A stretch of 64,000 nt of DNA from an uncultured Acidobacteriota bacterium (GTDB taxonomy: Bacteria; Acidobacteriota; Thermoanaerobaculia; Multivoradales; JAHEKO01): NCBI GenBank assembly GCA_963713825.1, contig CAVQNG010000003.1, forward strand, positions 992,001 through 1,056,000. The letters run 5' to 3'. The translations under genes were made by a program, and so were the position numbers. The notes below the pieces were generated by a model, which saw nothing but the letters and a program-made list of their open reading frames with translations, was not told where the DNA came from and made no database searches. Positions 5,680-47,730 of this stretch are shown in pieces. Numbering within the stretch: position 1 is the first letter of the stretch; each line of letters starts with the position of its first letter.

Positions 5680-5764
5680 TTCGCGGCTTGGCCAGATCGG
5701 GGTTTTGCAGTCGAATCACAGATGTCGGAATGGGCATTGGAAGGGAGAGGAATTGGCAAGCCAG

Positions 5765-6202: not shown

Positions 6203-6251
6203 TGGCACTGGGCCGAGGATGCAGTGCAGCCCTGAGCCCAATGTCGTGGGC

Positions 6252-6420
6252 AGGCCCGTCCGGGTGGTCCGCAGGCGGACGGCGACGGCTACTCAGACTG
6301 CGACGGGCGGGCCGCCGCCTCGTCTCGTCATCGCGCCCCATCTCCTGTGCACTATGGAGGACCTTGCGCTGCGCTCGACTCGGCGCCCCCTGCGAACCAC
6401 CCGAACGAACCTTTGGCACC
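6252..6420. repeat. 169-bp dispersed hairpin element, copy A (family 1)
   Basis: Gapless match to 47562..47730, about 74% identity by manual count. The two ends form a ~24-bp imperfect inverted repeat. Confidence 0.8.
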
Positions 6421-6445
6421 TGTGAAGGAAGTGGAGTCGATCAGA

Positions 6446-7384: not shown

Positions 7385-7477
7385 GGGTTGAGGCAGCCGG
7401 CGTTCCTTCGGCTGGTCTTTGAGGGCTTGGGGTTGAAGCAGCCGTCGCTGGCTCCGGCTGATCTTTTGGGCAGTGGG
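7385..7477 (+). repeat. Tandem doublet of ~46-bp REP-like hairpin unit (family 2)
   Basis: GGGTTGARGC..CCG..CGGCTG.TCTTT units start at 7385 and 7430. Homologous to 17679..17773 and to the reverse complement of 18013..18106. Confidence 0.75.
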
Positions 7478-7650
7478 GGGAACACTGCCACCTCGCCAGA
7501 GGCATTTCCGACCACCCACACAACCACGGATCGCCTCATTGCCTCGGAACCCCCAAGAAAAGATGGTCATCTGTTCAGGACCCAGGACCCGAGCCCCAGG
7601 ACGGGAGGGTGGGCTGGGATCGCCGGGCGCCTCAACCCGGAAGGCGAGCT

Positions 7651-10600
7651 CTACGCTGGTGTCTGAGGCGTCGGCGTCGGTTGTGGCGTCGGGGCTGGCT
7701 TTTTGCGGCTCATCTTCTCCGCCGCGGTCTGTACGACGAAGTACAGGAGCGGAATCATGAAGACGCCGGCCACGGTAGCCAGGAGCATGCCGCCGAAGAC
7801 GGCCGTTCCCAGGCTGACACGACTGTTCGCTCCAGCACCCGAGGCAATCACCAGTGGGATCACGCCGAGTAGGAATGACAGGGCGGTCATCAAGATCGGA
7901 CGGAAGCGGAGCCTGGCGGCCTCGCGGGCAGCCTCGACGATCGATTTACCGAATTCGTCTCGTTGCTGTTTGGCAAACTCGACGATAAGAATCGCGTTCT
8001 TCGCCGACATGCCAATGAGGAGCACAAAACCGATCTGGGTGTAGATGTTGTTATCGAACCCGCGCAGAAGGGTAAAGATAATGGCACCGAGAATCGCCAA
8101 AGGCACCGACAACAGCACCGCGATCGGTGTCGCCCAACTTTCGTACTGTGCCGCCAGAAAGAGAAAGACCATGATCAGCGCCAGAGAGAAGATCAAGGGC
8201 GCCACATTGCCCGACTCTTTCTGCTGCTGTGTGACGCCCGACCAGGCATAGCCCATCTGACTGGGAAGGATCTCCTTCGCAATCCGCTCGATCTCGTCGA
8301 CGGCTTGACCTTCGCTGTATCCGGGCGCTGGCGCACCCGTAATGGTCGACGAAGGGAACATGTTGAATCGGTTGATCACCGAGGGACCCACATCTTCATG
8401 CACGGAGAGCAAGGTGGAAAGCGGCACCATCAGGCCCTCGGCCGTGCGAACCTCGAGGCGTTGAATATCACTGACTCGATTCCGGAACGTCTCGTCGGCT
8501 TGCACCATGACGCGCCACGTGCGGCCAAAGCGGTTGAAATCGTTGACGTAGGCCGAGCCCAGATTGGCCTGCAAAGTGTCGAAAACGGTCTGCAGCGGAA
8601 TATTCAGTCGCTTGGTCTTCTCCCGATCCACATCGATATAGATCTGGGGAACATTCGACTGAAAGTTCTGATTCAAGCGGGTGATCTTGCCGCTTTGGTA
8701 GCCAGCCGTCACCATATCGTTGGCAAACGTCTCGAGCTGGAGCAGCCCTAAGCCACCAAGGTCTTGCAGCTCCATCTGAAAGCCACTGCCAGAGCCCAGA
8801 CCCTGAATCGGCGGGGGCCCAAATGCGAAGACGGTGCCCTCCCGCATCTTCGACAGTACTCCCTGGATCATCCCGATGGTCTCGAACACCGTGTTCTCTC
8901 GCTCACTCCAAGGCACGAGAGTAATGATCCCGGCACCAAAGTTGGGACCCTGTACTTGATCGAGGAATGAGTACCCACCAATGGCAATCGAGTTCTGAAT
9001 CCCGGGCAGCTTCTCGACCTCCGCCATGACGACGTCCATCACTTCCCGGGTTCTGGCGAGCGAAGCCGCATTGGGCAGCTGGATGTTGACAAAGAAGTAG
9101 CCTTCGTCTTCAGACGGAACGAAGCCACCAGGCATGGCGCCGAATCCGTAGACCATGGCTCCCACCAGCCCCGCAAAGATGATCATCACGATGATCGCTT
9201 TTCTTATCAAACCACCCACAGCGCGGCCGTAGGAGGCCGACATGCGATCGAAGTACTTGTTGAACTGCCGAAAGAACCAACCGGGCTCTTTGGCCTCGGA
9301 GCTCGGTTTCAGCAACATGCCGCAAAGCGCCGGGCTGAGTGTCAGGGCGTTGATGGAGGAGAAGATCGTGGCGACCGAAATGGTAATGGCAAAGGGCCGA
9401 TACATGCGCCCCGTCAGGCCGGGCATGACCAGCGTCGGCGCGAACACCGCCAGTAGCACGAGGGTTGTAGCAACGATGGCACCACCCACTTCGTCCATCG
9501 CCTTGGCCACGGCCTCTTTGGGACCCAGGCCCTCGGTGTCCATGATCCTCATGGTGTTCTCCACCACGACGATGGCATCGTCCACCACGATACCGATCGC
9601 CAGGACCAGTCCGAACAACGTCAGGTTGTTGATGGACTGACCGGTCACCAGCATGACGGAGAAGGTACCGATCAGGGCCACCGGAATCGTCACCGATGGC
9701 ACGACCGTGGTGCGAAAATCCTGCAAGAAGATATATACCGAGAAGATCACCAGGATGATGGCAATCACCAGCGATGTGACGACCTCCTTGATCGAGGCCT
9801 CGATGTAACGGGTCGCGTCGAAGGGAATCGAGTATTCCAGGCTCTCGGGAAACCGTGTCGACAGCTCTTCGAGAGCAGCGATCACACCTTGCGCCACGGC
9901 CAGTGCGTTCGAGCCCGGTAGCTGGTAGATCCCCATCGAGATGGCCGGCGCGCCATCGAGCTCGGAGTACCAGGCATAGGACAGGGCTCCCAATTCGACC
10001 CGGGCCACATCGGCAATACGAACCAACTGGCCCGCCTCGCCCCGCTTGACGATGATCTGCTCGAACTGGCTGACCTCAGCCAATCTACCGAGAGTCGTCA
10101 GGGTGTATTCGAAGTTGAGATTCCCCGAATTGGGCTCTTCGCCGATCTTGCCCGCCGCGACCTGGACATTTTGCTCTTTGAGGGCATTCAGAACTTCGTT
10201 GGTGGTCAGATTGCGGGCCTTGAGCAGCTCAGGATCCAACCAGATCCTCATGCTGTAGTCCTTGGCACCGAACATCATGACTTCGCCAACGCCATTCACC
10301 CGGGCCAGTACATCCTTGACCTGGGTGGTGGCATAGTTGCTCAGATAGAGCTCATCGCGCTTGCCGTCCGGAGAGTACAGAGCCGCCACCATGACCATGG
10401 AAGTGGACTGCTTCTTGGTGGTCACACCCTGTTGCTTCACCTCTGCGGGCAGCTTGGGGTCAGCGATGGAGACCCGATTCTGGGCCAGCACCTGGGCCAT
10501 GTCGGGGTCGGTGCCCACCGCAAAGGTAATGGTGAGGTTCATGCTGCCGGTGGCAGGGGCTCTTCGAGGACATGTAGAGCATGTTCTCGACGCCATTGAC

Positions 10601-10813
10601 CTCCTGCTCGATCGGTTGAGCGACCGTTTCGGCAAGAACCTCCGCACTGGCACCCGGATAGCTGGTAGAGACCTTGACAGTCGGCGGGGTGATGTTCGGA
10701 ACGCTCTCGACAGGCAGGATCGGGATCGAGAGCAAGCCGAGGAGCACGATCACGATAGCGATCACCATCGCGAAGATGGGTCGATAGATGAAGAATTTAC
10801 TGAATCCACCCAT
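7651..10813 (-). CDS. RND efflux permease (AcrB/MexF/BepE-like); frameshift near 10560
   Basis: N-terminus [13 protein letters not shown] (ORF 10460..10813), [34 protein letters not shown]. Confidence 0.93.
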
Positions 10814-10816
10814 CGA

Positions 10817-12070
10817 TCAACCGTCCTCGCTCGCGGGTTCGGCAGGCTGCTCGTCTTGACCGGTGGTTGCTTCGGGTTGACTCGCAGGCTGTGGCCGCTC
10901 GCTCGGCTCCGGAGTGTCGGACACTGTGTCGGGTGTCACCGGCATCCCAGGCCGCGCTCTCAACAGGCCTTCGACGATATAGGTCTCCGAGCCTTCGAGG
11001 CCCTCGAGGATTGGCACCATGCCGTCGGGTTCGACCACACCCAGCTGGACGTAGCGCCGCTCGACGAGGTTGTCATTACCCACGACGTAGACATAGCGCC
11101 CTCCCAGGTCGGTGCCGAGTGCTTGCTCGCGAATCAGCACGGCATCTTCCAGCAACTGGATGGGGATCCGCACCCGGACAAAGAGACCGGGGAACAGACT
11201 CAGCTCTTCATTGGGCAGTACAGCTCGTAGTTGGATGGTGCCTGTCGCCGCATCCACTGTGTTGGAGACATAGTCGATGGGACCGCTGAACGGGAAGTCA
11301 TCGTCGATCAAGGTCGCAACCTGGGCCATCGTCGTTTCTTGTCGCTCGAGTCTGGACTGGTCGATCTCCGTCGTCAGGTCCATGTTCCTCAACGCCCGCA
11401 GAACTATTTCCTCGGGAGCATCGAAGTAGACGAACATCGGCTGCATGCGATTGACCGTGGTCAGCAGCGTGCCCTCAGCTCCGCTGACGATGTTGCCGCG
11501 ATCCACCTGATTGCGGCCTACCTGGCCGGTAATGGGCGCACCGACTTGGGTGTAGGAGAGTTGAAGCTCGGCTCGATCGAGTGCCGCCTCGGCCGACAGC
11601 ACGGATGCTCTCGCCATGTCGCGATTGGCCCTGGCGAGATCCACGTCGGACTGGCTCACGGCGTTGGTCTTGACGGCCTGCTCGACCCGCTGGAGGTCGG
11701 ATTCGGTTCTTGCGAGATCCGCCTCGGCGGATTTGAGAGCCGCGTCCGCGGCATCCCGTTCCGCCTTGTACTGGCGCGGCTCGATCACAAACAGGGTCGC
11801 GCCCTCTTGCACGATCGTGCTGGGCTCGAAGGAGATCTGCTCGAGCTCGCCGGTGACTCGCGCCCTGACTTCGACCGACTCGAAGGCCCGAGTGGACCCG
11901 AGATGCTCCGAGAAGACCGTCACGTCGCGCAGGATCGGCTGGGCTACCCCGACATCAGGAGGTGGAGGCGGGCCGGTCTCGGCGTCTCCACCGCAGCCCA
12001 CGGCCAGAGCGGCCAGCGTCGCAAGAAGCAGGCAGCTCCATACGCTGCCCGGTCGGAAAGGTGTTCTCAT
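10817..12070 (-). CDS. RND periplasmic adaptor (MFP) subunit
   Basis: Lipobox AVGC, VEVRARVTG, APITG..GR, TGTIQLRA..PN..LFPGLFVRV. Confidence 0.92.
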   Translation of the reverse strand: MRTPFRPGSVWSCLLLATLAALAVGCGGDAETGPPPPPDVGVAQPILRDVTVFSEHLGSTRAFESVEVRARVTGELEQISFEPSTIVQEGATLFVIEPRQYKAERDAADAALKSAEADLARTESDLQRVEQAVKTNAVSQSDVDLARANRDMARASVLSAEAALDRAELQLSYTQVGAPITGQVGRNQVDRGNIVSGAEGTLLTTVNRMQPMFVYFDAPEEIVLRALRNMDLTTEIDQSRLERQETTMAQVATLIDDDFPFSGPIDYVSNTVDAATGTIQLRAVLPNEELSLFPGLFVRVRIPIQLLEDAVLIREQALGTDLGGRYVYVVGNDNLVERRYVQLGVVEPDGMVPILEGLEGSETYIVEGLLRARPGMPVTPDTVSDTPEPSERPQPASQPEATTGQDEQPAEPASEDG

Positions 12071-16323: not shown

Positions 16324-16487
16324 TAGGCTTGGGGCTTGGGTCCTGGGCAGTGGGAAGTGGGAAGTGAGTAGGGGCGTATAGGCGCAGGGGATATAGGGGA
16401 GGGGCTTGTCCCCTCCCGCTGTTCGGTGCCAGGGTCATTGGCCAGGAAGGGTTGAAGCGGCCGGCGCCCCTGCCGGCCGATCTCTGG
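16324..16487 (+). repeat. Composite intergenic repeat cluster: heptamer tandem, octamer tandem, GTAG-type REP-like hairpin, family-2 unit
   Basis: Six heptamers at 16324-16365 (GGGGCTT/GGGTCCT/GGGAAGT); TAGGGGCG-like octamers; ATAG-GGGAGGGG-CTTGT-CCCCTCCC at 16393-16417; GGGTTGAAGCGGCCGGCGCCCCTGCCGGCCG at 16449. Confidence 0.7.
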
Positions 16488-16499
16488 TGCATTGAAGTA

Positions 16500-17250
16500 A
16501 TGGGAAGCTACGAGAAATACGTTCCAGCCACCGAGTCCCGATCGGGAGTCTCGCTCATTTGGGTAGTGGCCGCTATCGCCATAGCAGGGGTAGCGGGCTC
16601 GGTGCTGATCTCGCAGAGAGCCAGAGAGGCCGAGCGGGCCGCGGTAGACAGCTTGGCGCGAGCAGAGCTTGCGTCCACAGAACTCGAGACCTGAAGCGGC
16701 CACTGTAACCAGTTCGCCGGTCAGTGTGGCTGGATCGCCCTACGCCAAGGATGCGCGCATCGTCGAGCTCGAGATGCAGCTCAGGGACAAGGAATTCGAG
16801 TTGTCGAGAAGAGGTCCGAGATCGAGTCCTTCGAGGTCGCGCGTAGGACAACTGCAGGAGGACTCGGAACGCTACAGAGCAGGGTTGGATCAGGCGGTGG
16901 CCGAGCTGAATGAGCTTCGCGCCGAGATCGGACGACTCGAAGGCCCGGCAAGAGCTACCCCTCAGGGACAAGCCGGTCCTCGACCGTCAGCTGGCGTGCA
17001 GCCGGTAGGGCCGCCCTACGTCACCATCAGTCCAATGGGCTTTGTAACGGTGAGCGGCTTCGTCAGTAACCCGACTCGCTATGCCTCCCGGGGCAAGCTG
17101 CAGGTCAGTCTGGTCGGTTCCGCCGGAGTCATTGAGACCCGTGATTTCCCCATGTACATCCCGCCGAACAAGCAGGAGCGCTACGACCTCACCTTTCCAG
17201 GGATCTTCCCGACGGAGCGCATTGCCGCTCAGGCAAGCTGGGTGCCGTAG
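16500..17250 (+). CDS. Hypothetical membrane-anchored coiled-coil protein with C-terminal beta-rich domain; frameshift near 16680
   Basis: N-terminal TM segment (ORF 16452) continues into ORF 16669..17250, which has heptad-like segments and an Ig-like tail. Confidence 0.55.
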
Positions 17251-17678
17251 TCGGCTTTTCCAGGCGTTCAGGTGTCCCTGATAGAGGACGAGTCTGGGGC
17301 TCGGTGACTGGGTACGAGGGTCTCAGCTTATCCGAGGCTGAGGCCCAGGTTGAAAGCCGAAGCGAGCAGGGTCAGCCACAGCAGGAACAGGGAGAACAAT
17401 GCCCAGTGACCGATGACGATCGGCTGTGACCTTCCGCCCTGGCCACTTGCGTCTTCTGAATCACGTGCTCATGGATCATGTCGGTTCTCCTTTCTCGCTG
17501 GTCGCGTTTACCTTCTCGTCATCTTCCTGATTGCATCTCTCGTGCCGGCTTTCGTCGTGGCCGATCACGAAGTGTCGCCTCCAGTAAGTAGGTGTCGGAA
17601 CCTGCGAGAAAGTTACAGTTCTCCGCGAGAAAAGGCAGTGGCGATAGGCGCCAATTCCTTGGCGCATGGCGCCAAGGA

Positions 17679-18106
17679 GGGTTGAGGCGCCCGGTCGTGC
17701 CTCCCGGTCGATCGTTGTAGCTTGGGGGTTGAGGAGTCCGTCGCTTGCTCCAGCCGATCCTCGAGGCAGTGGGGCTGGGGTCACACGGAAAAGACTCTCC
17801 AGCACGTGACCGTCCCTACAATTGGTTGAATACGGCCAATGGGTTGAATTTGGTAATTTGAATGTAGGTGAGGAGAGCCCACTGACCCAAGGATCGGCCG
17901 TTGGCCACTTTGGCCCTCGAGTTGTACATTTTGGGCGCTAAGAGGAGCCTTTTGGACGGTGGGCTGGCACAGCTATCGCCAGGTTCGCACAAGAGAAGGC
18001 GAGGGAGGGGGACCCACTGCCTCAAAGGCCGGTCGGCGAAGTCGCCGAGCGCTTCAACCCCCAAGCCCTCAAAGGTCGGCCGAAGGGACGCCGGCCGCTC
18101 CAACCC
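17679..18106. repeat. Inverted pair of family-2 doublets flanking a ~240-bp non-coding spacer (REPIN/MITE-like)
   Basis: 17679..17773 (+) and 18013..18106 (-) are homologous doublets in opposite orientation. Confidence 0.7.
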
Positions 18107-32595: not shown

Positions 32596-34035
32596 ATGAA
32601 ACGAAGGACCAGAAAGATGTGGATCGTGATTGCTTTGATTGTCGTTGCTCATATTGCCGGCTTCTTGTCGTCGATCAACGCCGTGATGAGCACCCGTACC
32701 TCGCAGGGGGCGATCGCGTGGGCGGTGTCGCTCAATACGTTCCCCTACCTGGCGGTGCCGGCTTATTGGGTGCTCGGGCGAAGCCGTTTCGAAGGGTACG
32801 TCGATGCCAGGCAGGGCGGTGATGAAGAGATCCGACATATCGCCGTGCGGGCCGGGGAGCAGGTGAAGCATGCGCGCTCGACTCGATCGCAGGAGAGTCA
32901 GTGGTCGGCCGCTGGTGAGCGGATCGCGAGAATCCCCTATTTGACCGGCAATGAAGTCGAGCTGCTGGTGGACGGACAGGAGACCTTCGACAACATCTTC
33001 GCTGGGATCGAGGCCGCCAAGGAGTACATCCTGGTGCAGTTCTTTATCGTCAAGGACGATGAGATCGGGCGCGACCTCCACGCGAGGCTCGTAGCCAAGG
33101 CCAAAGAGGGGGTGCGTGTCTACTTTCTTTACGATGAAGTCGGCAGCAACTCCCTGACCAAGACCTACATCAACGAGCTGCGGGAAGCTGGGGCTGAAAT
33201 CGTCGACTTCCACACCCGCAAGGGCCCTGGCAACCGCTTTCAGATCAACTTCCGCAATCACCGCAAGATCGTCGTGGTGGACGGCCACACCGCCTGGGTT
33301 GGCGGTCACAACGTTGGTGATGAGTACATGGGTCGCGATCCCGAGTTCGGCCACTGGCGAGACACGCATGTCAGGATTACGGGGCCTGCGGCGCTCGCTG
33401 TTCAGCTGACCTTCCTCGAAGACTGGTACTGGGCCACCGGTAAGACTCTGGAAATCGGCTGGTCGCCTCATCTCCCAGGAGGGGAGGGCAAGGATGTGCT
33501 GATCTTCCCGACGGGTCCCGCAGACCGTCTGGAGTCGGCAACCCTGTTGTTTCTGGCCGGCATCAACTCCGCTCGGGAGAGGATCTGGATCGCGAGCCCC
33601 TATTTCGTACCTGACGAGTCGCTGATGAACGCTCTGCACCTGGCCGCCCTGAGGGGCGTCGATGTGCGCATCATCATCCCGGACAAGGCAGATCACACAC
33701 TGGTATGGCTCGCCGCCTACTCGTACTTCGAGGAGGCTTCAGAGACGGGTATCCGATTCTTTCGGTACATGGACGGCTTCCTGCACCAGAAAGTGGTGCT
33801 GATCGACGACGGCATGAGCGCTGTCGGCACCGCCAACTTCGACAACCGTTCGTTCCGGCTCAACTTCGAGATCATGGCGGTTGTCGCCGACGAGGCATTC
33901 GCTACGGAGATCGAGCAGATGCTCCTCGCCGATATGGAAAAATCGGTGGAGATGCAGCCAGGAGACCTCGCCAATAAGTCCTTCTGGTTCAGGCTCGGTA
34001 CCCGGCTGGCACGGTTGACATCGCCTGTTCAGTAA
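32596..34035 (+). CDS. cls: Cardiolipin synthase
   Basis: Two HKD motifs (NHRKIVVVDG; LHQKVVLIDD) and NFDNRSFRLNFE. Confidence 0.92.
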   Translation: MKRRTRKMWIVIALIVVAHIAGFLSSINAVMSTRTSQGAIAWAVSLNTFPYLAVPAYWVLGRSRFEGYVDARQGGDEEIRHIAVRAGEQVKHARSTRSQESQWSAAGERIARIPYLTGNEVELLVDGQETFDNIFAGIEAAKEYILVQFFIVKDDEIGRDLHARLVAKAKEGVRVYFLYDEVGSNSLTKTYINELREAGAEIVDFHTRKGPGNRFQINFRNHRKIVVVDGHTAWVGGHNVGDEYMGRDPEFGHWRDTHVRITGPAALAVQLTFLEDWYWATGKTLEIGWSPHLPGGEGKDVLIFPTGPADRLESATLLFLAGINSARERIWIASPYFVPDESLMNALHLAALRGVDVRIIIPDKADHTLVWLAAYSYFEEASETGIRFFRYMDGFLHQKVVLIDDGMSAVGTANFDNRSFRLNFEIMAVVADEAFATEIEQMLLADMEKSVEMQPGDLANKSFWFRLGTRLARLTSPVQ

Positions 34036-34052: not shown

Positions 34053-34111
34053 GAGAGGTGCCGGCCGATTCTGGGCATCGGCCCGCGGTTCCAATATTCG
34101 GTTGGTACCCT
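34053..34111. repeat. Miniature palindrome of the GGTGCC end-motif family (family 3)
   Basis: GGTGCCGGCCGA pairs with TCGGTTGGTACC (12 bp, with G-U pairs). The left arm matches the transposase end motif. Confidence 0.6.
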
Positions 34112-34125
34112 GGCTAGGAGGGTGA

Positions 34126-36693
34126 ATGCAACTCGTCAGAAGCAGTCGTTTCCTGTGCCCGCGCATCATGGCAGCCGGGTCAATAGCGCTCCTGTGCTTG
34201 GCGGTTGCCGTACCTGGAACGGCTCAGTTTGCCGAGCAGCCCTCCGAAGCGACGCCGTCGCCAACGCAGCAGCCGCCGCCGCCACCTGAGCCGAAGCCGA
34301 TCCCTGCCTCGGACATTCCGTCCCGAGCGGCCGCGGCCGCCGACATTGCACGCGAGGCCGTCACCAATGCTGCACCCGACGCCCGAGTCCAGGACATCCA
34401 ACAGGGCTTTCCTGCCGAGCAGGCAAGAATCAACCAACTCCGCGAAGCAACCACGAAACAGCTGAAGGCTCCCGGGCCGGCGTCGACAATCAAGGAAACC
34501 CAGAACGCCGTCGCGCGATCGCGCGATCGACTCGACCGCTGGCTGGCGGATCTGTCGACGCGGTCGAGCGCCCTCGACACTACCCTCGAGGACCTTCAAA
34601 GTCGAACCTCGATCTGGCGGCTCACTCGTGACAACGAGTCCGCGGCCGCGCTGCCGGAAGAGTTGATTCAGCAAGTTGCGGACACCATCGAGGCTCTCAC
34701 CGACGCCGAGAACCAGGTGCTGTCCGCGAGAGACTCGATCCTCGGCCTGCAGGCGAGCATCGCGCAGGAGAAGAGCGGCGTGGACGCGTTGCTGGCCGAC
34801 CAGCAGAGCGAGATTTCCAAGCGGACCAAGGGCCTGTTCGGCATCGATAGCCCCCCGTTGTGGAAGGCCTTCGGGGGCGAGGGTGATTCCGGCGACGCTT
34901 TGAGCCAGTTCGCGGCGATCCAGCAGGAGCATTGGCGATCGCTTGAGAGCTACGTGACCGAGCAGGGGTGGTCGCTCCTGATTTGGATACTGATGTGGCC
35001 TGCGCTCGCCCTGCTGATGGTCGCCATGAAGCGCAAGGCAACGGTTTGGGTGCAGCAGGACACCTCTCTGCAGAGGGCGGTCGAGGTGCTGAGTAGGCCG
35101 GTGTCGGCGGCTCTTGCCGTGACAGCGATCCTCAACGAATCCCTGCAGCCAAAGGCCCCGAGTGTGTGGGTCGTCGTGGTCAGCCTGGCCCTGGTAGTGG
35201 CGCTGCTGAGGTTGCTCCCCGTGTTGCTGCCCCAGTCGATGAGCCTGGCCTCTGTTCTGGTCGCGCTGCTCTACCTCATGCGACGGGCAGTCAGGCTGGC
35301 GCCTGAGGGGTTCGTCGTCCACCGGTTGGCACTACTGTTCCTGGCGGCCGTGGGTATCGTGACCTGTGTCTGGGTGATCCACGTTCTGAAGACGGATCCC
35401 GGGAGGCTGTCGAAGGCCTGGCATCGTGCTGTCCTTCTTGGTGCGCGTGCGGCACTTGCCCTGTTTACAGTCGGCGCGCTCGCGGATGTCATCGGCAGCG
35501 TCGAGTTCTCGGCGCTGGCGCTCACGGGAACGGCATACGCCTTGCTCGCCGCCGTCTTGATCTGGGTGGTGAGTGTGATTCTACGGTCGATGGTGCGGAT
35601 CGTGCTCCTTTCCGACGCTGCTCGCCGGTCGGGGATTGCGCCGGACCATTCGGAGACGGTCCGCAGGACGGTCTTCCGCTTCATCAGCGTCTTGGCGGTG
35701 GTCTGGTGGGTGGTGGCTGTGCTCAAGAGCTTTTTCCTCTTGGACCCCCTGCTCCTCGACGTTCGTCATGCCCTCGATTGGAAGCTCGCGGTCGGTGAAT
35801 TCTCCATAGCTCCCGGCGACATTCTGATCTTCGGTTTCACCATCTGGCTGTCGATGAAGCTCGCCACCTTCGTCCAGTTCATCCTCAACGTCGATCTGCT
35901 GCCCCGGGTCGATCTGCCCCGCGGTGTGCCCCAGACGATCTCGCGACTGGCGCGTTACGCGGTGATCACTGTCGGAGCTGTGGTCGCGAGTGCGGCAGCC
36001 GGCCTGGATATCAGCAAGGTCACGATCATCGTCGGAGCACTCGGTGTAGGCATCGGCTTCGGACTGCAGAACATCGTCAACAACTTCGTATCGGGCCTGA
36101 TCCTGCTCTTCGAACGACCGATCCGGGTTGGCGATACGCTCGACCTCCACAACACCGGCGGCGTGGTGGAGACGATCGGCATGCGGGCCAGCATCGTCAA
36201 CACCTGGGAGGGGGCCGAGATCATTGTCCCCAACGCCAACTTGATCTCGGAAGATGTCGTCAACTGGACCCTGACCCATGACCGCCGGCGCATCTCACTT
36301 CCGGTGGGAGTGGCCTATGGCACCGACCCCGAGAAGGCCGCGCAACTGATCGTCGATGTCGCCCACGATCACAAAGCTGTCGACGCCAGCCCCAAGCCGA
36401 TCTGCCTGTTCGTCGGGTTCGGCGACAGCTCGCTCGATCTCGAGCTGCGCGCCTGGGCCGCAGGGTCGGACTTCCTGCAAGTTGCCAGCGACCTGCGGTT
36501 CACCATTGTTCGCAAATTGACCGAGGCCGGGATCGAGATCCCCTTCCCCCAACGCGAGATCCACCTCCACAACTCCACGCAGGTGCCAGCCGTTTCTGAA
36601 ACCGCAGCCGAATTGACCACCGATTCGAGCTCCAAGCCGGGCCCAGGGGCAGAGCAAAAGACCGTCGAATCGAAGGAGAGGACTGATGATTAG
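34126..36693 (+). CDS. Large MscS-family mechanosensitive channel (MscK-like)
   Basis: Periplasmic coiled-coil, multiple TMs, GVGIGFGLQNIVNNFVSGLILLFERPIRVGD, IEIPFPQRE. Confidence 0.9.
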   Translation: MQLVRSSRFLCPRIMAAGSIALLCLAVAVPGTAQFAEQPSEATPSPTQQPPPPPEPKPIPASDIPSRAAAAADIAREAVTNAAPDARVQDIQQGFPAEQARINQLREATTKQLKAPGPASTIKETQNAVARSRDRLDRWLADLSTRSSALDTTLEDLQSRTSIWRLTRDNESAAALPEELIQQVADTIEALTDAENQVLSARDSILGLQASIAQEKSGVDALLADQQSEISKRTKGLFGIDSPPLWKAFGGEGDSGDALSQFAAIQQEHWRSLESYVTEQGWSLLIWILMWPALALLMVAMKRKATVWVQQDTSLQRAVEVLSRPVSAALAVTAILNESLQPKAPSVWVVVVSLALVVALLRLLPVLLPQSMSLASVLVALLYLMRRAVRLAPEGFVVHRLALLFLAAVGIVTCVWVIHVLKTDPGRLSKAWHRAVLLGARAALALFTVGALADVIGSVEFSALALTGTAYALLAAVLIWVVSVILRSMVRIVLLSDAARRSGIAPDHSETVRRTVFRFISVLAVVWWVVAVLKSFFLLDPLLLDVRHALDWKLAVGEFSIAPGDILIFGFTIWLSMKLATFVQFILNVDLLPRVDLPRGVPQTISRLARYAVITVGAVVASAAAGLDISKVTIIVGALGVGIGFGLQNIVNNFVSGLILLFERPIRVGDTLDLHNTGGVVETIGMRASIVNTWEGAEIIVPNANLISEDVVNWTLTHDRRRISLPVGVAYGTDPEKAAQLIVDVAHDHKAVDASPKPICLFVGFGDSSLDLELRAWAAGSDFLQVASDLRFTIVRKLTEAGIEIPFPQREIHLHNSTQVPAVSETAAELTTDSSSKPGPGAEQKTVESKERTDD

Positions 36694-37966: not shown

Positions 37967-38016
37967 CAAGAGGTGGTTCGAAGGCTGAATCCGGCATTCC
38001 TAGCCGGGTCGATCCC

Positions 38017-38058
38017 CCGAAGAGGTGCCCCCCGGAGAATCGGCTGGCACCTTTCTGG
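38017..38058. repeat. Miniature joined-end palindrome (family 3)
   Basis: CCGAAGAGGTGCCCCCCGGA followed by GAATCGGCTGGCACC: left-end-like and right-end-like arms of the 39098..40341 element, fused. Confidence 0.7.
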
Positions 38059-38078
38059 CTTCGGGACCTCTTGCTTCC

Positions 38079-39074
38079 TCAACAGTTGGGTTCGGTCTCG
38101 GTCTTCCACTCCGACAGCTTCTCAGCGATCCTGATCTTCAGCTCTTCCTTGGCCGGTAGCGCCTGCCGGTAGATCTCGTCCGCCCTGTAGAACTGCAGGG
38201 TGCGGATGTCGCTGAGCTCGGGTTTGAAATAGATATCGGGAGGGTGTATCTCGATCTCTCGATCCATGATCGCCTGCTGCATGATCTGGACGGAACCGAA
38301 AACGGTGTCGAAGTACCCGGGCACCGACCCTGGTTCGGCTGGGCTTGGGCCGTTGATGTCGACAGCGATCACGAGGTCACAGGAATCCGTCAATACGTCG
38401 TAGGGCACCGGATTCACCGTGCCTCCGTCGATGAGCACGCGCCCGCCGAGCTCGACCGGCGAGAAGAGACCGGGCAGTGCCATACTGGCCTGGACGGCCG
38501 GTTGCAGCGGCCCGGAGTCGAGGACGACGGTTCGGCGCTCCCAGAAGTCGGTGGCGACCACGGTCAACGGTACGACGAGCTCCTCGAACGTCGTGCCCTG
38601 TTGGTCCTCGAACAACTGGGCCATGATCGACGTGCTCTCGATGAGTCCGCTGTTCTGAAAGTCGGCGTCGATCATCCTCATCCACTTCCTGATCTTCCGG
38701 TTGGCGACCACGCCACGGAGCGTGTCACTCTTGGTAATCGCCAGACGGGCGAGTTTCTCCTTCATCTCCAATGGCGACAGCCCCGAGGCATAGAGTGCAC
38801 CCATCACCGCACCGATGCTGCAGCCGGCTACTCGGTGGGGGACGATCCCGAGCTCGTCCAGTGCTTCGAGCATCGCAACATGAGCGATGCCCTTGGCACC
38901 GCCCGCACCGAGAGCGATCCCGATCTTCGGTTGCGAATCCGGTTCCGGGTGGCGTTTCTGTGGACCAGGATCCGTGGAGGATTTGGCCAGGGGCATCCTG
39001 CCTGTTCCAAACCGAGTGACTGCAGTCGCTGCCGCGAGCCCACGCATGAATGACCTACTCTTGATCTGCATCAT
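38079..39074 (-). CDS. Patatin-like phospholipase (RssA/NTE-like)
   Basis: LGAGGAKGIAH, GCSIG, ASMALPGLF.P, DGG..NPVP. Confidence 0.88.
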   Translation of the reverse strand: MMQIKSRSFMRGLAAATAVTRFGTGRMPLAKSSTDPGPQKRHPEPDSQPKIGIALGAGGAKGIAHVAMLEALDELGIVPHRVAGCSIGAVMGALYASGLSPLEMKEKLARLAITKSDTLRGVVANRKIRKWMRMIDADFQNSGLIESTSIMAQLFEDQQGTTFEELVVPLTVVATDFWERRTVVLDSGPLQPAVQASMALPGLFSPVELGGRVLIDGGTVNPVPYDVLTDSCDLVIAVDINGPSPAEPGSVPGYFDTVFGSVQIMQQAIMDREIEIHPPDIYFKPELSDIRTLQFYRADEIYRQALPAKEELKIRIAEKLSEWKTETEPNC

Positions 39075-39097: not shown

Positions 39098-40341
39098 CCG
39101 AAGAGGTGCCACCCGAATCTGAAAGATGTTGGGGGTTTACAGCGTCCTATGATTTATGTCTAGGAGATTACGGTTCATCCCAGAAGGCGGTGCCCTGGTT
39201 GAGGTGACGTGCCGGACCATTCAGGGGCGTTTTCTGCTGAAGCCGTCCGAGGAGCTGCGGTCCATCGTCATCGGGGTCCTGGCACGGGCGCAGAGGCTCT
39301 TCCCGATTGAGCTCCATGCCTTTGTCTTTCTCTCGAATCACTATCACCTTCTCTTGAGTGCGCAGAACGCCCATCAGCTAGCGCGATTCATGAATTACCT
39401 CAACTCGAATCTGGCGCGAGAAGCAGGCCGAGTACATGGCTGGAGAGAGAAGTTCTGGAGTCGCAGATACCAGGCGATCGTTGTCAGTGAAGAAGAGGCC
39501 GCTCAGACAGGTCGCCTGCGGTATCTGTTGTCCCATGGGTGTAAAGAGGGTCTCGTGTCTCGGCCACGAGAGTGGCCTGGAGCCCATTGCGCAGAGGCGC
39601 TGGTCGAAGGCCGGTTGCTCGAGGGTTTGTGGTTTGACCGCAGCCAGGAGTACGCGGCGCGAACCCGACGAGAAGAGATTGACCGCCTCGCGTACGCAAC
39701 GGCTGAAACGATACGGCTCGAACCCTTGCCCTGCTGGCAACATCTCTCGGAGGAGATGTACCGATGCCGGGTCGGTGAGCTAATCCTGCAGATCGAGGCA
39801 GAAACCGCCGAACTCCATGCCAAGGAGGGAACCCAGCCTCTGGGAGTCGGTGCCGTCTTGGCCCAGAATCCCCACGACAGGCCCCTGAGGTCGAAGAAGG
39901 CCTGGGCGCCGGCATTTCATGCGGCTACAAAGGTAGCCCGCAGAGAACTGGTCGAGGCCTATGGCTGGTTTCTGGGTGCCTATCGCGAGGCTGCGGAGAA
40001 GCTATGCTGCGGCGACCTCGGAGCGAGTTTTCCCGAGGGATGCTTTCCTCCACGACTTCCCTTTGTCGGATGGGTCCCTGACTTGGCGCCTGGCTAGCGA
40101 TAGGTCGGCATCTCATCGGAACGTTTGGCAGATCAGAGAGCACGAGGCAGTTCGTGGCAAGAGGCTTCATGTGTAGACCGCCCCCGGTCGACGCACTCAC
40201 TGTCCCCTTTGGAGACTCAGCTCCGTCGATTCCCCTCTATTGCCGCTTCGAATCGATGACCACGGAGTCCGACAGTGGATGAATCGTGGCCTTATACCGG
40301 TCAAGGTTGCCAACGTCCAGATTCGGCTGGCACTTCTTCAG
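39098..40341 (+). mobile_element. Putative HUH-transposase element bounded by 26-bp imperfect inverted repeats
   Basis: Left CCGAAGAGGTGCCACCCGAATCTGAA (39098-39123) versus reverse complement of 40316-40341, CTGAAGAAGTGCCAGCCGAATCTGGA: 22/26 identical. Confidence 0.65.
39156..40097 (+). CDS. Y1/HUH transposase, RAYT-like (IS200/IS605 TnpA superfamily) with C-terminal extension
   Basis: EVTCR, HAFVFLSNHYHLL (HUH), FWSRRY, RYLLSHGCKEGLV..P.EW. Confidence 0.85.
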   Translation: MSRRLRFIPEGGALVEVTCRTIQGRFLLKPSEELRSIVIGVLARAQRLFPIELHAFVFLSNHYHLLLSAQNAHQLARFMNYLNSNLAREAGRVHGWREKFWSRRYQAIVVSEEEAAQTGRLRYLLSHGCKEGLVSRPREWPGAHCAEALVEGRLLEGLWFDRSQEYAARTRREEIDRLAYATAETIRLEPLPCWQHLSEEMYRCRVGELILQIEAETAELHAKEGTQPLGVGAVLAQNPHDRPLRSKKAWAPAFHAATKVARRELVEAYGWFLGAYREAAEKLCCGDLGASFPEGCFPPRLPFVGWVPDLAPG

Positions 40342-43300
40342 TCTCGGGCGGAGGAGGGAGAAAGCAGATATCCGACCCGTCGGTGGGCAGGGGCTTCTTC
40401 AGGACCTGCGTGTAGATCGTCAGCCACCACATATAGATTCTGAAGGCCGTACCTACGAACCCCCCTTTGGTCAAGAGAGATCGATGGATCTGCTATGGGT
40501 CCCTTGATCTTGGCTGGTGTTGCGAGGGTCAAGAAGGTCCTCTTCTTTGGCCGTGGGCGCAGTGTCATGTTGAGGGTCATGTCTTCGAGGCTGATTGATC
40601 CCTTGCCCCGGGCTCGAATGCTCGAGGTGTCGAACCAGAACTCTTCGACCGTCATCTGTCCTTCGGCAACCGAAAAGGTTCCCACCATGCAATTGAGAAC
40701 GGACTCATCGGTCGGATCTACCACGCGGACCATCGACCGGAACAGGCCGGCACCCCAGAGGCTGAGTAGGGTGGTGTCGATGTCGCGGGGGAAGAGCGCG
40801 AGGCGAAAGTTCCCTCCCGTGGCTGTGAGGATCTGATCGGCCGGTACGCTCGGGGTCACCAATCGGGTCTCTAGATCGATGCTGCCATGGCCTTCCGCCT
40901 CCGGATTGAGGAGTTCGAGGATCGGGCCGTACTCCAAGTTGTCGATAGCAAGCTCCAGCTCGGTGGCAACGCGGCCCGCCTCAGCAACCAGGGTGGCCTG
41001 GCCGTCAATGTTCCCGTCGGCCAACGCCAGGCTGAAAGGCCCAAGGGTTAGCCGACCCTTTTCGGACTGGATCTCGACATGTCCACCGCCACCCGTCTCG
41101 CCACCCCAGTAGATGTCTTCTGACTGCAAGCTCAGGTCGAGATCCATCTTCGCGAGCTTGCTCGACTGGAGCTTCTCCAGCCAACTCTCCTGATCCTCGT
41201 CCTCTGTGCCGCTGTCGGGCTCCGCTGACGCCGCGGTGTCGCTCTGGGTCTCGTCAGGGGTCCCAGTATTGGCGGAGATCTCGGCGAGATGGATGCGCCG
41301 CGACGAGAAGTCGGCGGAGAGACGAGGTCGAGCACCCGTGAGGTCCAAGGAGACGCTTCCATGGGCGTCGGATTCTCCGACTTCGAGGGAGAGGTCCTGC
41401 AAGGTGAAGCTGTCAGGACGGATTGCGAGGTCTCCTGAGGCTGCTACGGGTCCGATTTCGGAGATCCGGTGTCCGGTGAACGGTTCGAAGCTACTGACAC
41501 GATCGGCTGCCAGCGAGAAGCTGAAGTCGAGGTTGTCGGGAGTGACGGGTGGCGTGAGCACAGCCCTTGTTTCCAGCTGGGCGTCTCCCATACTCAGAAC
41601 CATATCGACCGGGAAATGGTTGTCATCGAGACCCGCTTGGTCCTTGTTGTGAAGGGTGAGCTGGAGGTCGACAGGCCACTCCCAGAGGTGGCCGTCAGCA
41701 GTTACCTGGAGGGGTTTGCCAGGGGACTCGGAAATCGCCGCCTGGTCCATGGTGAGCTCGAGGGGTTTCGCTTCGTCGAGGGAAGGGGCGGACAGGTAGA
41801 CCCCCTCGGCACGACCCGACATGACCACACCTTCGTGGAGCATCTCGCGCAGCGTCTCCGCGGCGCTATCGACCTCGAGGTCGAATCGCTGGGCCCGAAC
41901 GACGAAATTCGGTGCGACTTCTCCGAGCGGGACGAGCCGACCGAGATCTGTCGCCTCGCCGCTCAAATCCAGGCTCATTTCGGGGGGATCTGTTCCCCAG
42001 TCGAGATCCAGCTCACCCCGGTAGCTGGCCTCGTCGGCTCGACCGGAGAAGGCGACTCGCTTCAGATGACTTTGGGAAACGACCGCGTCCACGACGACAT
42101 TCGAGAAGTCGGCGAGCTCTTCCGAGTCGCGGATGACTCTGTCGAGCTCGAGATGAGCCCTGACATCCGGAAGGGGCAGCTCCTCTGGCCAGATCGGCAC
42201 GTCGACGGTGAGAACAGGATTCGATGAGAGCTTTTCCTCCTCGGCGCTGATCAAGCTCACCAGTTCGTCGAAAGCCACAATAGAGGCATCGAGATCGACA
42301 AGGATGGGGGAGCCCTTCTGCGGCGGAACTTGCAGGCTCAGCGCGGTGGTGGTTTGGCCTACGCGCAGCGTGTCGAGATGCAGCTCTCGCCGCTCCGGTT
42401 CGACGATCAGCCTCCCGTGCGCCTCGTAGGAGTAGTCAGCGTCTGCCGGAACTCCCCACCAGGGCTCGAGGTCTCCGATGCGGTCACCGGTGACGTCGAG
42501 CTCCAGTTCCAAGAAGAAGTCGTCGGTCTCGAAGGAAACGCTGCCTTCGATCGATGTTTTCCCTCCCAGCCCTTCGCCGACCAGTGTGAACGGCCAGGGC
42601 TCCCTGGATTCCCAGTCTTTGCTGGCTTGCCCCTTCAGCTCGATGCTGTAGGGGTATCCCCGCAGGTCTCCGTCGAGGCTCACTTGCACGGGCACTTGCG
42701 GGCTACGTTTCAACTCCAGGCGTGTGAGGTTGAGATCGACTTGTCTTTCACCGTCGAGACTGCTGAGGCGAACCTGCGTATCTCCGGTCTCGAGCTGAAT
42801 CTCGAACTGATTGAGCATCTCGCCGAGTGTTTCACCGGAGCTCGAAGCCGACAGGTTCAGCTGTCCGACGGTGCCTGTTGTCAGGCCCTTTCCCAGGTCT
42901 GCCGTGAGCTGATCGAGGGGAAACGTGGCTGACGAGAGGTCGAGGGCCAGCTCCAGCAGACCTCGAGTGCTTGCAACCCTCACCTCCCCCTCGACGGAAG
43001 TTCCTGCCAGCTGGAGCTCGTACGGCAGGGTCAAGTGCCCGTCTTGGAGAATCAGCTCTCCCTTCATCTCTTCGACGGTAGTTTGGAGACCGTCGAGTCC
43101 CTCGATGCTGATGTCGAGGTCGACGTTCATCGCGGCCAGAGCGTTTTCGAGTAGCTCTGTTGGGATGGGCCGCTCGAAGATTCGGTATTCAGTCGCGACC
43201 TCTGTCTTCGGGTCATCGCCAGTTGGGGGAAGATCGAGCCATGGGCCTAGGTCGATTCGGCCGGTATCCAGTCTGCCGTCGAGTGTGAGCTTCTCGCTCT

Positions 43301-44204
43301 CGAAGCTCAGTTGGAGATCACCGCTCAGCTGGGCTTCGCCGATCCGGCTTTGGAGCTCGGACAGGTGGAATGGACCCCCGGAGTGAGTCAGGCTGCCTTG
43401 GACCTGGAAGGAGCCCAGCGAAGGGACGCGGATTCCGGCGGCTGCGAGTGTGATCTCGAGATCGTCTCCCTGGAGACTGAATTCGAGGGCAAGGGTCGGT
43501 GGGTTGGACTGCCTGCTGAGAGTGCCTTCGAGGGTGAGATTGGCGCCGGCGACATCGAGGGCCGCCTCCATTGGAATCGTCGAATCTGAATTGAGGAGAT
43601 CTTCCAGTGTGGGACCCCCAGCCTCGAATCGCAGAGCCGTGTCGTCGAAGCTCCCACGAGCTACGAGCTTCAACGGAGAGGTCCGGGTGATTCCACCGTC
43701 GAGCTCGTCGATCACGAGCCGGTGGTCACCGCCGAGGTCGTCCGTGACATTCACCTGAACCTGGTCGAACTCGAGGATCTTGAGGGCGTCCACCCGATAC
43801 GGGGATTTCGGGCGATCCTCTTGTCCGATCCAGCTCTTCACCAATTCGAGCGTCGGGCGCAGTTGCACCGTCACCTGATCCAGTTTCAGGGAGTCGATGG
43901 AGATATGGCGTTTCAGGAGCGGTATCAACTCGATCTGGAGCTGAGTCGTCTCGACGCTTGCCAGATCTCCCGCTCGCAGGTTTCGGATCTCCACAGTCGG
44001 TTCGAGAGATGTCGTCAGGAAGAGCTCTTCCAGAGTTATTGGAGCTCCGGTGAGGCCGGTCAACTGTGCCTCGAGAAGGCCCTTGAATGGGCTCAGGTTC
44101 AGGGTGGGCTGCAAAAGGAGAAGAAACGCCACGAAGGCGACGACGACAACCACGCAGACCGCAAGAGCGATCACCAGCCGTCGCAGCCATGGATGCTTGG
44201 TCAC
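40301..44204 (-). CDS. AsmA family protein; frameshift near 40470
   Basis: N-terminal TM anchor and repeated beta-groove segments; C-terminal LNC..F...G..G.G.ISL..P..I.GP...P. The corrected frame ends at TGA 40301-40303. Confidence 0.8.
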
Positions 44205-46766: not shown

Positions 46767-47401
46767 TGTTGACAGAAAGAGGGAGTGCCTGGGGGGACAT
46801 CGTGGCGATGACCGCCGTGCTCCTGTCCTACATGTGGCTCTGGCAGCGGACCTTTGCTGGAGAGTTGTTCGTTTGCATAGCTCTGGTGGTAGGGCTGGCA
46901 GTTTGGAGCCATTGGCGCCGGGGCGAGACTCCACGCGACCTTGGGTTTAGGACCGACAATCTGGCTCCAGCCGCGATCAAGGTCTTTTCCTTTGTCGGTC
47001 CCTTGATTGTCTTCATCCTGATCGGTGGTGTTGCGCTGGGCACCTTTCGCGTCCCGGCCCGGGACGAGTTCTTGGCCAGACTGATTGTCTTGCCGCTGTT
47101 TGGCCTGGGACAGCAATACCTGCTGCTTGGTTTCTATCTGCGCCGATACGAGGAGGCGCTACCTGGAGAGCGACTGCCGATCTTGGCAACGGCCCTGACC
47201 TTCTCCCTTCTACACCTGCCGAACAGCTTTTTGGTCGGCGCGACCTTTCTGATTGGACTCGGTTCGTGTTGGCTCTACGGCCGGGCCAGGAATCTCTGGG
47301 TCCTGGGCCTTGCCCATGGCCTGCTGTCCCTGGCCTTTTCGGTCTCGATCTCCAAGAGCCTCGCCTCCGGAATGAAGGTTGGGTCGAGAGCGCTGAAGTG
47401 A
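46763..47401 (+). CDS. CPBP (Abi/CAAX) family intramembrane protease-like protein, QQ variant
   Basis: RDLGF; FGLGQQYLLLGF in place of EExxxR; FSLLHLPN; LGLAHG. Confidence 0.7.
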   Translation: MMLTERGSAWGDIVAMTAVLLSYMWLWQRTFAGELFVCIALVVGLAVWSHWRRGETPRDLGFRTDNLAPAAIKVFSFVGPLIVFILIGGVALGTFRVPARDEFLARLIVLPLFGLGQQYLLLGFYLRRYEEALPGERLPILATALTFSLLHLPNSFLVGATFLIGLGSCWLYGRARNLWVLGLAHGLLSLAFSVSISKSLASGMKVGSRALK

Positions 47402-47531
47402 GGCAGTGAAGCAGTGAGGCACTGAGGCAGTGAGGCAGTGAGGCAGTGAGAGGGAATAAGGGCGTAAGGGCTTAGGGGCGTAGGGGATAGAAAGCCCGTG
47501 GGTGAAGCGGCCGGTGCCCCTGCCGGCCGTT
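47399..47531 (+). repeat. Octamer tandem repeats (TGAGGCAG x6-7, then TAGGGGCG-like x4-5) followed by a family-2 unit
   Basis: Read directly: tgaggcag tgaagcag tgaggcac tgaggcag tgaggcag tgaggcag; taagggcg taagggct taggggcg taggggat; GGGTGAAGCGGCCGGTGCCCCTGCCGGCCG at 47500. Confidence 0.8.
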
Positions 47532-47561
47532 TGTCCGTCTAACTGAGAAGTCGTCGCGTGG

Positions 47562-47730
47562 AGGTCCGTCCGCGTGGTCCGCAAGGGGACGGCGTCGTCC
47601 ACTCAGACTTTGATGAATGAGCCGCCACCTGCGCTCTCCGGCGCGCCGGATCTGTCGTGCACTTCGACGACTCTTGCGCTGCGCTTGTCGAGAGCCCCCC
47701 TGCGGACCACCCGAACGAACCTCTGGCACC
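47562..47730. repeat. 169-bp dispersed hairpin element, copy B (family 1)
   Basis: Same length and orientation as 6252..6420. Shared blocks ACTCAGACT, GTGCACT, CTTGCGCTGCGCT and ACCACCCGAACGAACCT.TGGCACC. Confidence 0.8.

Follow-up and report, generated by a model that had tools for sequence, protein, structure and literature searches.

Inverted Motifs That Are Not Hairpins Flank a Large Acidobacterial Family of RAYT-like Y1 Genes, Which We Read as a Variant of the TIRtron Kind

Introduction

Do the RAYT-like HUH/Y1 gene at 39156-40097 (+) of a stretch of DNA from an uncultured Acidobacteriota bacterium (contig CAVQNG010000003.1, positions 992,001 to 1,056,000; the whole stretch of 64,000 nucleotides is referred to below as the window) and the inverted repeats that enclose this gene form a mobile element, and, if so, of what kind? 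To our knowledge, every biochemically studied Y1/HUH transposase reads DNA hairpins on single strands. A sequence-only reading of the window had taken the gene and its repeats for a candidate undescribed mobile-element system, representing a distinct group of RAYT-like Y1 enzymes with inverted ends that are not hairpins. Judging from sequence comparisons across homologous loci, we find it rather probable that the locus is a TIRtron-type element, i.e., a gene of a RAYT-like HUH/Y1 nuclease-ligase of single-stranded DNA (ssDNA) bounded by inverted copies of the ~18-nt motif that the enzyme itself would recognize.

Results

Inverted Copies of One Motif Flank the Y1 Gene and Its Relatives

The gene lies between two inverted arms, the left terminal repeat at 39100-39128 (+) and the right terminal repeat at 40311-40339 (-). 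The arms are 29 nt long, complementary at 24 of 29 positions (83%) and 1182 nt apart, and they contain the 26-bp inverted repeats (22/26) recognized in the sequence-only reading. Each arm holds an 18-nt core. The left core, at 39103-39120 (position weight matrix (PWM) score 24.8), begins 53 nt upstream of the start codon, and its GTGCCA hexamer begins 50 nt upstream of it; the right core occupies 40319-40336 (PWM score 24.5). The ungapped inverted-repeat score of the pair is 16, and none of 300 dinucleotide shuffles of the downstream flank reached it (shuffle maximum, 13). The arms were also said not to be hairpins themselves, and indeed the arm regions, taken as ssDNA, folded no better than shuffles (z of -0.49 and +0.24). 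The claim that the right repeat overlaps the last codons of the neighboring AsmA/YhdP-like gene holds only in part: the arm runs 2 nt into the stop codon of this gene (ORF (open reading frame) end, 40338), and the 18-nt core is clear of the ORF.

One scan of a species-representative genome collection gave 256 stretches with a relative of the gene, the best 80 of which were analyzed (loci designated by L and a number). All 80 loci come from metagenome-assembled genomes (MAGs) of Acidobacteriota, mostly of Thermoanaerobaculia, and they represent 41 assemblies by accession prefix, with up to 6 loci each. The strict core GTGCCA-N-[GC]-C was counted within 300 nt upstream of the gene in the + orientation and within 400 nt downstream in the - orientation, at the 70 loci with flanks that long. 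A lack of conserved inverted flanks in homologues had been named beforehand as what would refute the proposal. Both motifs, inverted to each other, were found at 38 of the 70 loci, only the left one at 8, only the right one at 8, and neither at 16, several of the latter holding variant motifs such as GTGTCA or GCCAGACGATTCC. In the opposite-orientation control, the motif was seen upstream at 2 loci, downstream at 6, and on both sides at none. The inverted flanks are thus conserved in homologues, and the proposal of a distinct group of RAYT-like Y1 enzymes with inverted, non-hairpin ends is supported.

The consensus is the same at both ends (AGGTGCCA-g-CCG-at-T-c), and the ~18-nt motif can be written as the pattern R-AGGTGCCA-S-CCGATTC. 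The distance from the left GTGCCA hexamer to the ATG has a median of 69 nt (interquartile range (IQR) 50-102) and is exactly 50 nt in the clade of the window's own gene, while the median distance from the stop codon to the right motif is 247.5 nt (IQR 231.5-257.75; 50 loci). The pair of motifs is conserved, together with its orientation and spacing, throughout a large family, in members with as little as 54% protein identity.

A PWM was built from the flanking copies, with the threshold set at 0 matches in 624 kb of shuffled loci. It identified 224 sites in the loci, with 74 of them within 300 nt upstream (72 in the + orientation, 3.26 per kb) and 60 within 400 nt downstream (55 in the - orientation, 2.0 per kb), these being the flanks on which the matrix was trained. 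No site was found in 72 kb of Y1-family genes, and 0.13-0.36 sites per kb were found further out. Moreover, when the left and right ends of 40 loci, including the window, were compared at 22 variable positions, they were 51.5% identical within a locus vs. 44.6% between loci, and none of 5000 permutations gave a value as high. As the ends of one locus are more alike than the ends of different loci, the two ends evolve together. A stricter ungapped inverted-repeat scoring (mismatch -2), which is less sensitive than the motif count, gave scores of at least 12 in only 23 of 75 loci.

Copies of the Unit Are Divergent and End at the Motifs

An all-against-all blastn comparison of the loci revealed pairs from the same assembly, on different contigs, that are 85-92% identical at the nucleotide level over 1150-1370 bp centered on the gene (for example, within the sets L014/L019, L024/L027, L055/L057/L063, L060/L080 and L064/L072/L076). 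On the right, the similarity ends at the outer edge of the right motif or a few bases from it, and on the left it ends at the left motif or just inside it, most cleanly in L004/L006. The copies from the same genome sit in unrelated contexts on these different contigs. Within genomes, the unit of ~1.15-1.37 kb has been duplicated with the motifs as its limits. In a maximum-likelihood tree of 75 proteins, with six loci with broken, over-long or incomplete ORFs left out, some loci cluster within genomes (L064/L072/L076, L055/L057/L063, L060/L080, L014/L019, L004/L006 and L046/L047/L059), and others form cross-genome orthologue pairs (L005/L008, L018/L022, L024/L031 and L027/L028).

Gene fragments adjoin full copies in L001, L060, L063, L077 and L079. 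L063 has the element in two full copies and three partial ones within 8.9 kb, and the gene of L060 is bracketed by an 873-bp direct repeat (3004-3876 and 5439-6311, 99.5% identical), with further partial copies downstream. Both loci look like local duplication hot spots.

Only L003 has the window's AsmA-like neighbor; its AsmA-like protein is 60% identical, and its Y1 protein 77% identical, to those of the window. By our own reading, the motif at this syntenic locus stops ~13 nt before the AsmA stop codon at 5185. The presence of the same neighbor in L003 indicates that the window copy is an old resident of its position. From its sequence context, this copy looks as if it mostly acts as a vertically inherited, domesticated-like gene and not as an active insertion sequence (IS).

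The Protein Has a Predicted TnpA-REP/IS200 Catalytic Fold and a Long C-Terminal Extension

The gene was identified by its match to Pfam Y1_Tnp, by a Foldseek comparison and by the invariance of its HUH and tyrosine residues. It encodes a 313-aa protein that contains SNHYHLL and RYLLSHGCKEGLV, in agreement with the NHYH motif and the variant tyrosine helix noted previously. Its HUH motif comprises H62 and H64, its candidate catalytic tyrosine is Y123, and a C-terminal extension spans residues ~140-313. The Y1_Tnp (PF01797) match, at 32.9 bits against a cut-off of 23, is limited to residues 38-115 of the 313, which leaves the long C-terminal extension that had been pointed out before. The best NCBIfam match, REP_Tyr_transpos, reached 51.5 bits, under its cut-off of 80, and transpos_IS200 reached 21 bits, under its cut-off of 55. 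Since both scores are below the cut-offs, the protein falls outside both the curated RAYTs and the curated IS200 transposases.

An AlphaFold2 model of the 313-aa protein, based on an 18-sequence alignment, had a predicted local distance difference test (pLDDT) value of 70.5 and a predicted template modeling (pTM) score of 0.71. The top match of this model in a Foldseek search of the PDB was 4er8_A (E 3.2e-6, TM 0.67 on the target), which is E. coli TnpA-REP bound to a REP (repetitive extragenic palindrome) hairpin, and the next matches were ISDra2 (2xm3) and IS608 TnpA. A profile search of PDB sequences retrieved ISDra2 TnpA (E 1.2e-3), in which the residue aligned with Y123 is the tyrosine of KYIESQ, close to the C-terminal end. 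H62, H64, Y105 and Y123 are invariant in the 18-sequence alignment, and so are many positions of the C-terminal half. The residue at +4 from the tyrosine (H127 here; Q, H or N in the family) is presumably the third metal ligand, by analogy with IS608. According to the model, the catalytic fold of the protein is that of TnpA-REP/IS200, and both the HUH histidines and the tyrosine are intact. The score of a predicted dimer of two protein copies (0.33 vs. a mark of 0.42) has no bearing either way.

The family is large. A word-indexed search found 2305 proteins at E ≤ 0.001 among 8000 candidates scored, and the best 120 relatives are 62-99% identical to the query over 89-100% of its length, mostly with the full 313 residues. 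In the source records, relatives are named 'REP element-mobilizing transposase RayT', 'putative transposase', 'hypothetical protein' or 'transposase [Thermoanaerobaculia bacterium]'. When the representatives of clusters at 50% identity were searched exhaustively with a profile, 9383 of them matched at E ≤ 1e-3, of which 3767 reached E ≤ 1e-10 and 1035 reached E ≤ 1e-30. The tyrosine helix of 90 of the top 150 representatives matches a strict search pattern and has the consensus Y-[LVI]-L-[AS]-[QHN]-G-[VC]-K-E-G-L-V; in these 90 helices, the residue at +4 is Q in 42, H in 33, N in 12 and A in 3, and the residue at +5 is G in 85. The corresponding tyrosine motif of the window protein is YLLSHG. 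Plasmid matches were only two and distant, with 26-28% identity over 28-35% of the query (residues 31-141 and 53-141).

All 18 aligned members match Pfam Y1_Tnp. Their C-terminal half (~140-313) has no Pfam match even at E ≤ 5, and when modeled alone (pLDDT 76.8) it had no fold match in the PDB (best Foldseek E 1.6). The only look-alikes of the C-terminal domain in the Atlas were unnamed clusters of Acidobacteriota and Myxococcota.

The gene is preceded by a patatin-like gene (38079-39074, -) and followed by the AsmA/YhdP-like gene (40338-44204, -), both identified as ORFs with Pfam matches. As claimed, no tnpB is adjacent to it. A search for a second Y1 gene in the window yielded only a tblastn match with an E of 0.84 at 17485-17682, which has no Pfam match and was treated as chance. 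No PADLOC defense model was matched.

Copies of the Motif Away from the Gene

Five motif sites scoring at least 16 were found in the 64 kb of the window, as compared with none in 30 shuffles, and two of them are the element's own ends. The other three all lie within 5.1 kb upstream of the gene. A solo copy at 34055-34072 (+; PWM score 19.2) occupies a 90-nt gap between the ORF at 32596-34035 and an MscS-like gene. Another copy, at 36580-36597 (+; PWM score 24.6), falls inside the MscS-like ORF near its 3' end, at about codons 819-824 of 855, past the last Pfam domain (end at residue 805). The position of this copy inside the coding tail suggests that part of the tail may be repeat-derived. The third copy, with its core at 38036-38053 (-), has the best score in the window (27.4) and forms part of a strong hairpin (38016-38065) in the interval that separates two convergent patatin-like genes; as ssDNA, this segment folds at -16.1 kcal/mol (z of -3.5; 0/200 shuffles as good). 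The sites at 34055-34072 and 38036-38053 bear out the small motif copies reported near 34053 and 38017. Mobilization of such copies by the enzyme, which was proposed at the same time, is an inference.

Direct tandem arrays of the motif, with periods of ~17-80 nt, are frequent in the homologous loci, e.g., upstream of the L074 and L077 genes. Among neighboring motifs at most 150 nt apart, 61 pairs are direct vs. 8 inverted. The predominance of direct pairs argues against a hairpin as the usual form of the motif, the one at 38016-38065 being an exception. It is possible, as had been proposed, that the two ends of the element form a hairpin only when brought together, by pairing into a stem of 24 of 29 bp on one strand; however, the ratio of direct to inverted pairs does not favor hairpin formation as an organizing principle.

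The Leader and the 3' Spacer of the Unit

A [GT]CAAGAT box (39119-39127 in the window; ~40-45 nt upstream of the start codon in the loci) is conserved in nearly all clades, also in those that have the GGTGCCA motif further upstream (L064, L060 and L046), and a conserved CGTC is located nearer to the start codon than this box. Both may be part of a promoter or a 5' untranslated region. No sigma-70 promoter site was found at the left end. We also considered TGGCAC as a sigma-54 promoter and rejected this reading; on our own inspection, the conserved part of the motif is on the wrong side, and the right arm has no GC at -12.

The non-coding stretch from the stop codon to the right repeat (3' spacer, 40098-40310) is kept in length and not in sequence. 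A small ORF considered in it was dropped, as no reading frame was consistent when the spacer of the window was compared with those of the loci by tblastx. RNAalifold predicted no pairs in an alignment of 12 spacer sequences, and a candidate CACGAG/CTCGTG stem, paired in 64% of cells, was equaled by 97 of 500 shuffles and had no covariation support. The spacer length (median ~248 nt) is thus kept family-wide without a detectable conserved sequence, frame or structure.

Other Repeats in the Window

A 169-bp element with TGGCACC ends, which had been suggested as possibly mobilized by the same enzyme, is present as a 178-nt repeat. The motif PWM scores no site in it, and nothing links it to the Y1 gene. 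The two copies (6243-6420 and 47553-47730) are 80% identical, end in TGGCACC and have long internal inverted arms. The first ends ~25 nt upstream of an ATG at 6446-6448, and the second is separated by 186 nt from a downstream ORF with its start at 47917. The repeat could be a shared leader or a structured element of two genes. An Rfam scan of the whole window gave no match at gathering scores. The TGGCACC heptamer occurs 21 times in the window on both strands vs. 8.9 expected (0/100 shuffles reached 21). Eight of these are + strand copies within 4095-11018, at a great distance from the Y1 gene.

The window also contains a second, palindromic REP-like family, which consists of GGGTTGA(A/G)G, a GC-rich stem-loop and GATCTCTG. 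Its copies are at 7385-7432, 16449-16494, 17720-17773, 18013-18066, 18059-18106 and 47500-47529, and inverted copies bracket a ~1.6-kb stretch (16449-18106) without a recognizable Y1 gene. The 3' part of this family (GCCGGCCGATCTCTG) resembles the inner half of the Y1-flanking motif. An 8-nt unit (TGAGGCAG, with variants) is repeated ~7 times in tandem at 47399-47454, just upstream of one palindromic copy and of a copy of the 178-nt repeat.

Discussion

Comparison with Known Y1 Systems

The designation of the system as undescribed was too strong. Di Nocera, De Gregorio and Rocco (2013; PMC3733652), in the part of their paper used here, reported RAYT-like genes flanked by terminal inverted repeats (TIRs) and not by REP hairpins, and named the gene with its flanking TIRs a TIRtron and the protein TIRYT. 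Their TIRs lie at constant distances from the gene and have the common motif GGGGWSAS; the TIR repeat families are found singly, as dimers and in clusters; and there is a sharply defined acidobacterial TIRYT group. In the sections of the work of Quentin et al. (2018; PMC6006769) that we drew on, 20 of 26 TIRYT proteins are assigned to TnpA-Y1 subclass 2.1, which has the signature Y---NP and HTH-type C-terminal domains (Bac_DnaA_C, HTH_23 and HTH_28); Table 1 of that work gives Y---Q as the tyrosine signature of class 1, Y---NP of all class 2 and Y----Q of class 3.

As far as these excerpts describe TIRtrons, the family presented here is like them in having a RAYT-like Y1 gene flanked by non-REP terminal inverted repeats, arms at a roughly constant distance from the gene, an acidobacterial occurrence, and a motif that is also repeated off the flanks, singly or in tandem (with the three extra copies of the window). 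Its core GGTGCCAS fits GGGGWSAS at 6 of 8 positions, in our own comparison with the published consensus only. In contrast to the Y---NP of subclass 2.1, the tyrosine region of the family is Y-x-L-x-[QHN]-G-x-KEGLV, and the three HTH-type domains were matched by 0 of 18 members at E ≤ 5. The subfamily matches none of the subclass signatures in Table 1 of PMC6006769 by our reading of them, and we read the family as a variant of the TIRtron kind, set apart from subclass 2.1 by the excerpted descriptions. Our search of the literature on TIRYT, on Y1/HUH transposases with terminal inverted repeats and on REP element-mobilizing transposases of Acidobacteria found nothing on this family itself. The general arrangement is already in print, and we rate the family as not a categorically new system.

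The family resembles REPtrons (RAYT/TnpA-REP, PDB 4ER8) in that these provide the best structural match of the catalytic domain and the best NCBIfam match, in that the repeat whose inverted copies enclose the gene is present at other intergenic sites too, and in that the paralogues are divergent and not near-identical. It differs from them in that the repeat is non-palindromic and lacks the GTAG tag, the motif pairs are direct and not REPIN-like inverted doublets, and the protein lacks Y---NP, is about twice as long and is present in several copies per genome.

With IS200/IS605 elements (ISDra2 and IS608 TnpA), the family shares the HUH/Y1 fold and a polar residue at +4 from the tyrosine, which is Q, H or N here and Q in IS200 (Table 1, PMC6006769, as excerpted). 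According to the same source, the ends of IS200/IS605 elements are subterminal hairpins without TIRs, and their transposases are ~150 aa long with no extra domain and are encoded by copies that are ~99% identical. In contrast, the unit described here has TIRs and no end hairpins, a protein of 313 aa, copies that are at most 92% identical, and no adjacent tnpB.

Finally, class 3 of TnpA-Y1 proteins, reported from Planctomycetes, Acidobacteria and Proteobacteria, is intermediate between IS and REPtron in the part of Quentin et al. (2018; PMC6006769) consulted. The family is like class 3 in its occurrence in Acidobacteria, and the flanking repeats of class 3 have CnGA, comparable to CCGA in the motif here. 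Unlike class 3 proteins as summarized there (~178 aa, NHVH, Y----Q), the window protein has 313 aa, NHYH and Y-x-x-x-H-G, and unlike the atypical secondary structures that flank class 3 genes, its flanks are unstructured.

Proposed Mechanism and Its Alternatives

If the locus is a TIRtron-type element, the enzyme would bind the motif, probably with the help of the family-specific C-terminal domain, as the motif itself offers no hairpin to be read. It would then nick and rejoin ssDNA via a 5'-phosphotyrosine intermediate formed by Y123, at the outer edge of the motif or close to it, with H62 and H64 holding the metal. Such activity would occasionally copy the whole unit, and it would seed motif-only copies nearby. 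An extension of this scheme, in which a large HUH/Y1 branch reads a linear, non-hairpin 18-nt motif via its C-terminal domain, uses the inverted copies as ends and lays motif-only copies as direct tandem arrays, is tentative, and we think of it as possible rather than probable.

Several observations weigh against the TIRtron-type scheme. The known Y1 enzymes IS608, ISDra2 and TnpA-REP recognize hairpins; since the flanking motifs here are unfolded and neighboring motifs are mostly direct, the mode of recognition must differ from that of the known enzymes. There is no dispersed full-copy pair above ~92% identity among the 80 loci, so that recent transposition is not shown, although it could be hidden by the tendency of MAG assemblies to be collapsed or broken where repeats are young. 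The strong motif copies of the window, five in all, are confined to within 6.3 kb of the gene, with the remaining ~58 kb having none, and this confinement leaves a genome-wide dispersal in the source genome unproven. Additionally, the PWM counts at the flanks are partly circular, which does not apply to the regular-expression counts and the off-flank matches.

The alternative that survives best, though we consider it unlikely, is that the gene is domesticated and immobile, and that the motifs are operator-like or iteron-like duplex binding sites of the C-terminal domain and not transposon ends. The enzyme would then regulate itself or serve a host function at the motif copies, and its duplicates would arise via ordinary segmental duplication or recombination between motif arrays. 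In agreement with that, the position next to the AsmA-like gene is kept in a relative in which this neighbor has diverged to 60% identity, L005/L008 and L018/L022 are syntenic over 6-7 kb, the ORFs are intact and of conserved full length family-wide, the left motif lies at a fixed distance from the ATG beside the conserved [GT]CAAGAT box, the direct tandem arrays are iteron-like, and local tandem duplications occur, such as the 873-bp repeat (99.5%) on both sides of the L060 gene. However, the invariance of the HUH histidines and the tyrosine argues that nicking activity is probably retained, and copies that end at motifs in unrelated contexts are not easily explained by plain segmental duplication. 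Moreover, the left end has no sigma-70-like promoter.

Less probable still is that the unit represents a new family of ordinary insertion sequences, with a classical Y1 transposase, the 29-nt arms as duplex-bound TIRs, and the small copies as decayed derivatives similar to miniature inverted-repeat transposable elements. A unit delimited by TIRs, up to 6 copies per assembly among the best 80 loci, the occurrence of partial copies, and many matches on short contigs or at contig ends, as is often the case with repeats, would all fit such an element. Its copies, however, would not be expected to be 85-92% identical instead of near-identical, with paralogues that are old clades common to several genomes, nor would motif-only copies be expected mostly as single sites or direct arrays and not as TIR pairs (61 direct vs. 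8 inverted). Furthermore, no target-site duplication was seen in the flanks inspected, no systematic test having been made, and only the two distant plasmid matches were found. A chance match of the inverted arms, with the ORF as an isolated remnant of IS200-like type, has only the modest arm length in its favor and is refuted by the shuffles (0/300 as high), by the motif pair in 38 of 70 loci and by the PWM site counts.

Conclusions

We know of no biochemistry on TIRtrons, a class defined by bioinformatics, and with the family described here this class gains its best-documented example, with a conserved motif, orientation and spacing, co-varying ends and unit boundaries. For annotation, the results concern genes that are now labeled 'RayT' or 'transposase' although they score below both NCBIfam equivalog cut-offs. 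A large family with conserved ends that are unable to form hairpins raises the question of how the enzyme finds its sites, and a defined 18-nt substrate together with clear catalytic mutants makes site recognition directly testable. If the reading of a linear motif is true, it would constitute a third mode of end recognition and dissemination, beside the subterminal hairpins of IS200/IS605 and the palindromes of RAYT/REP.

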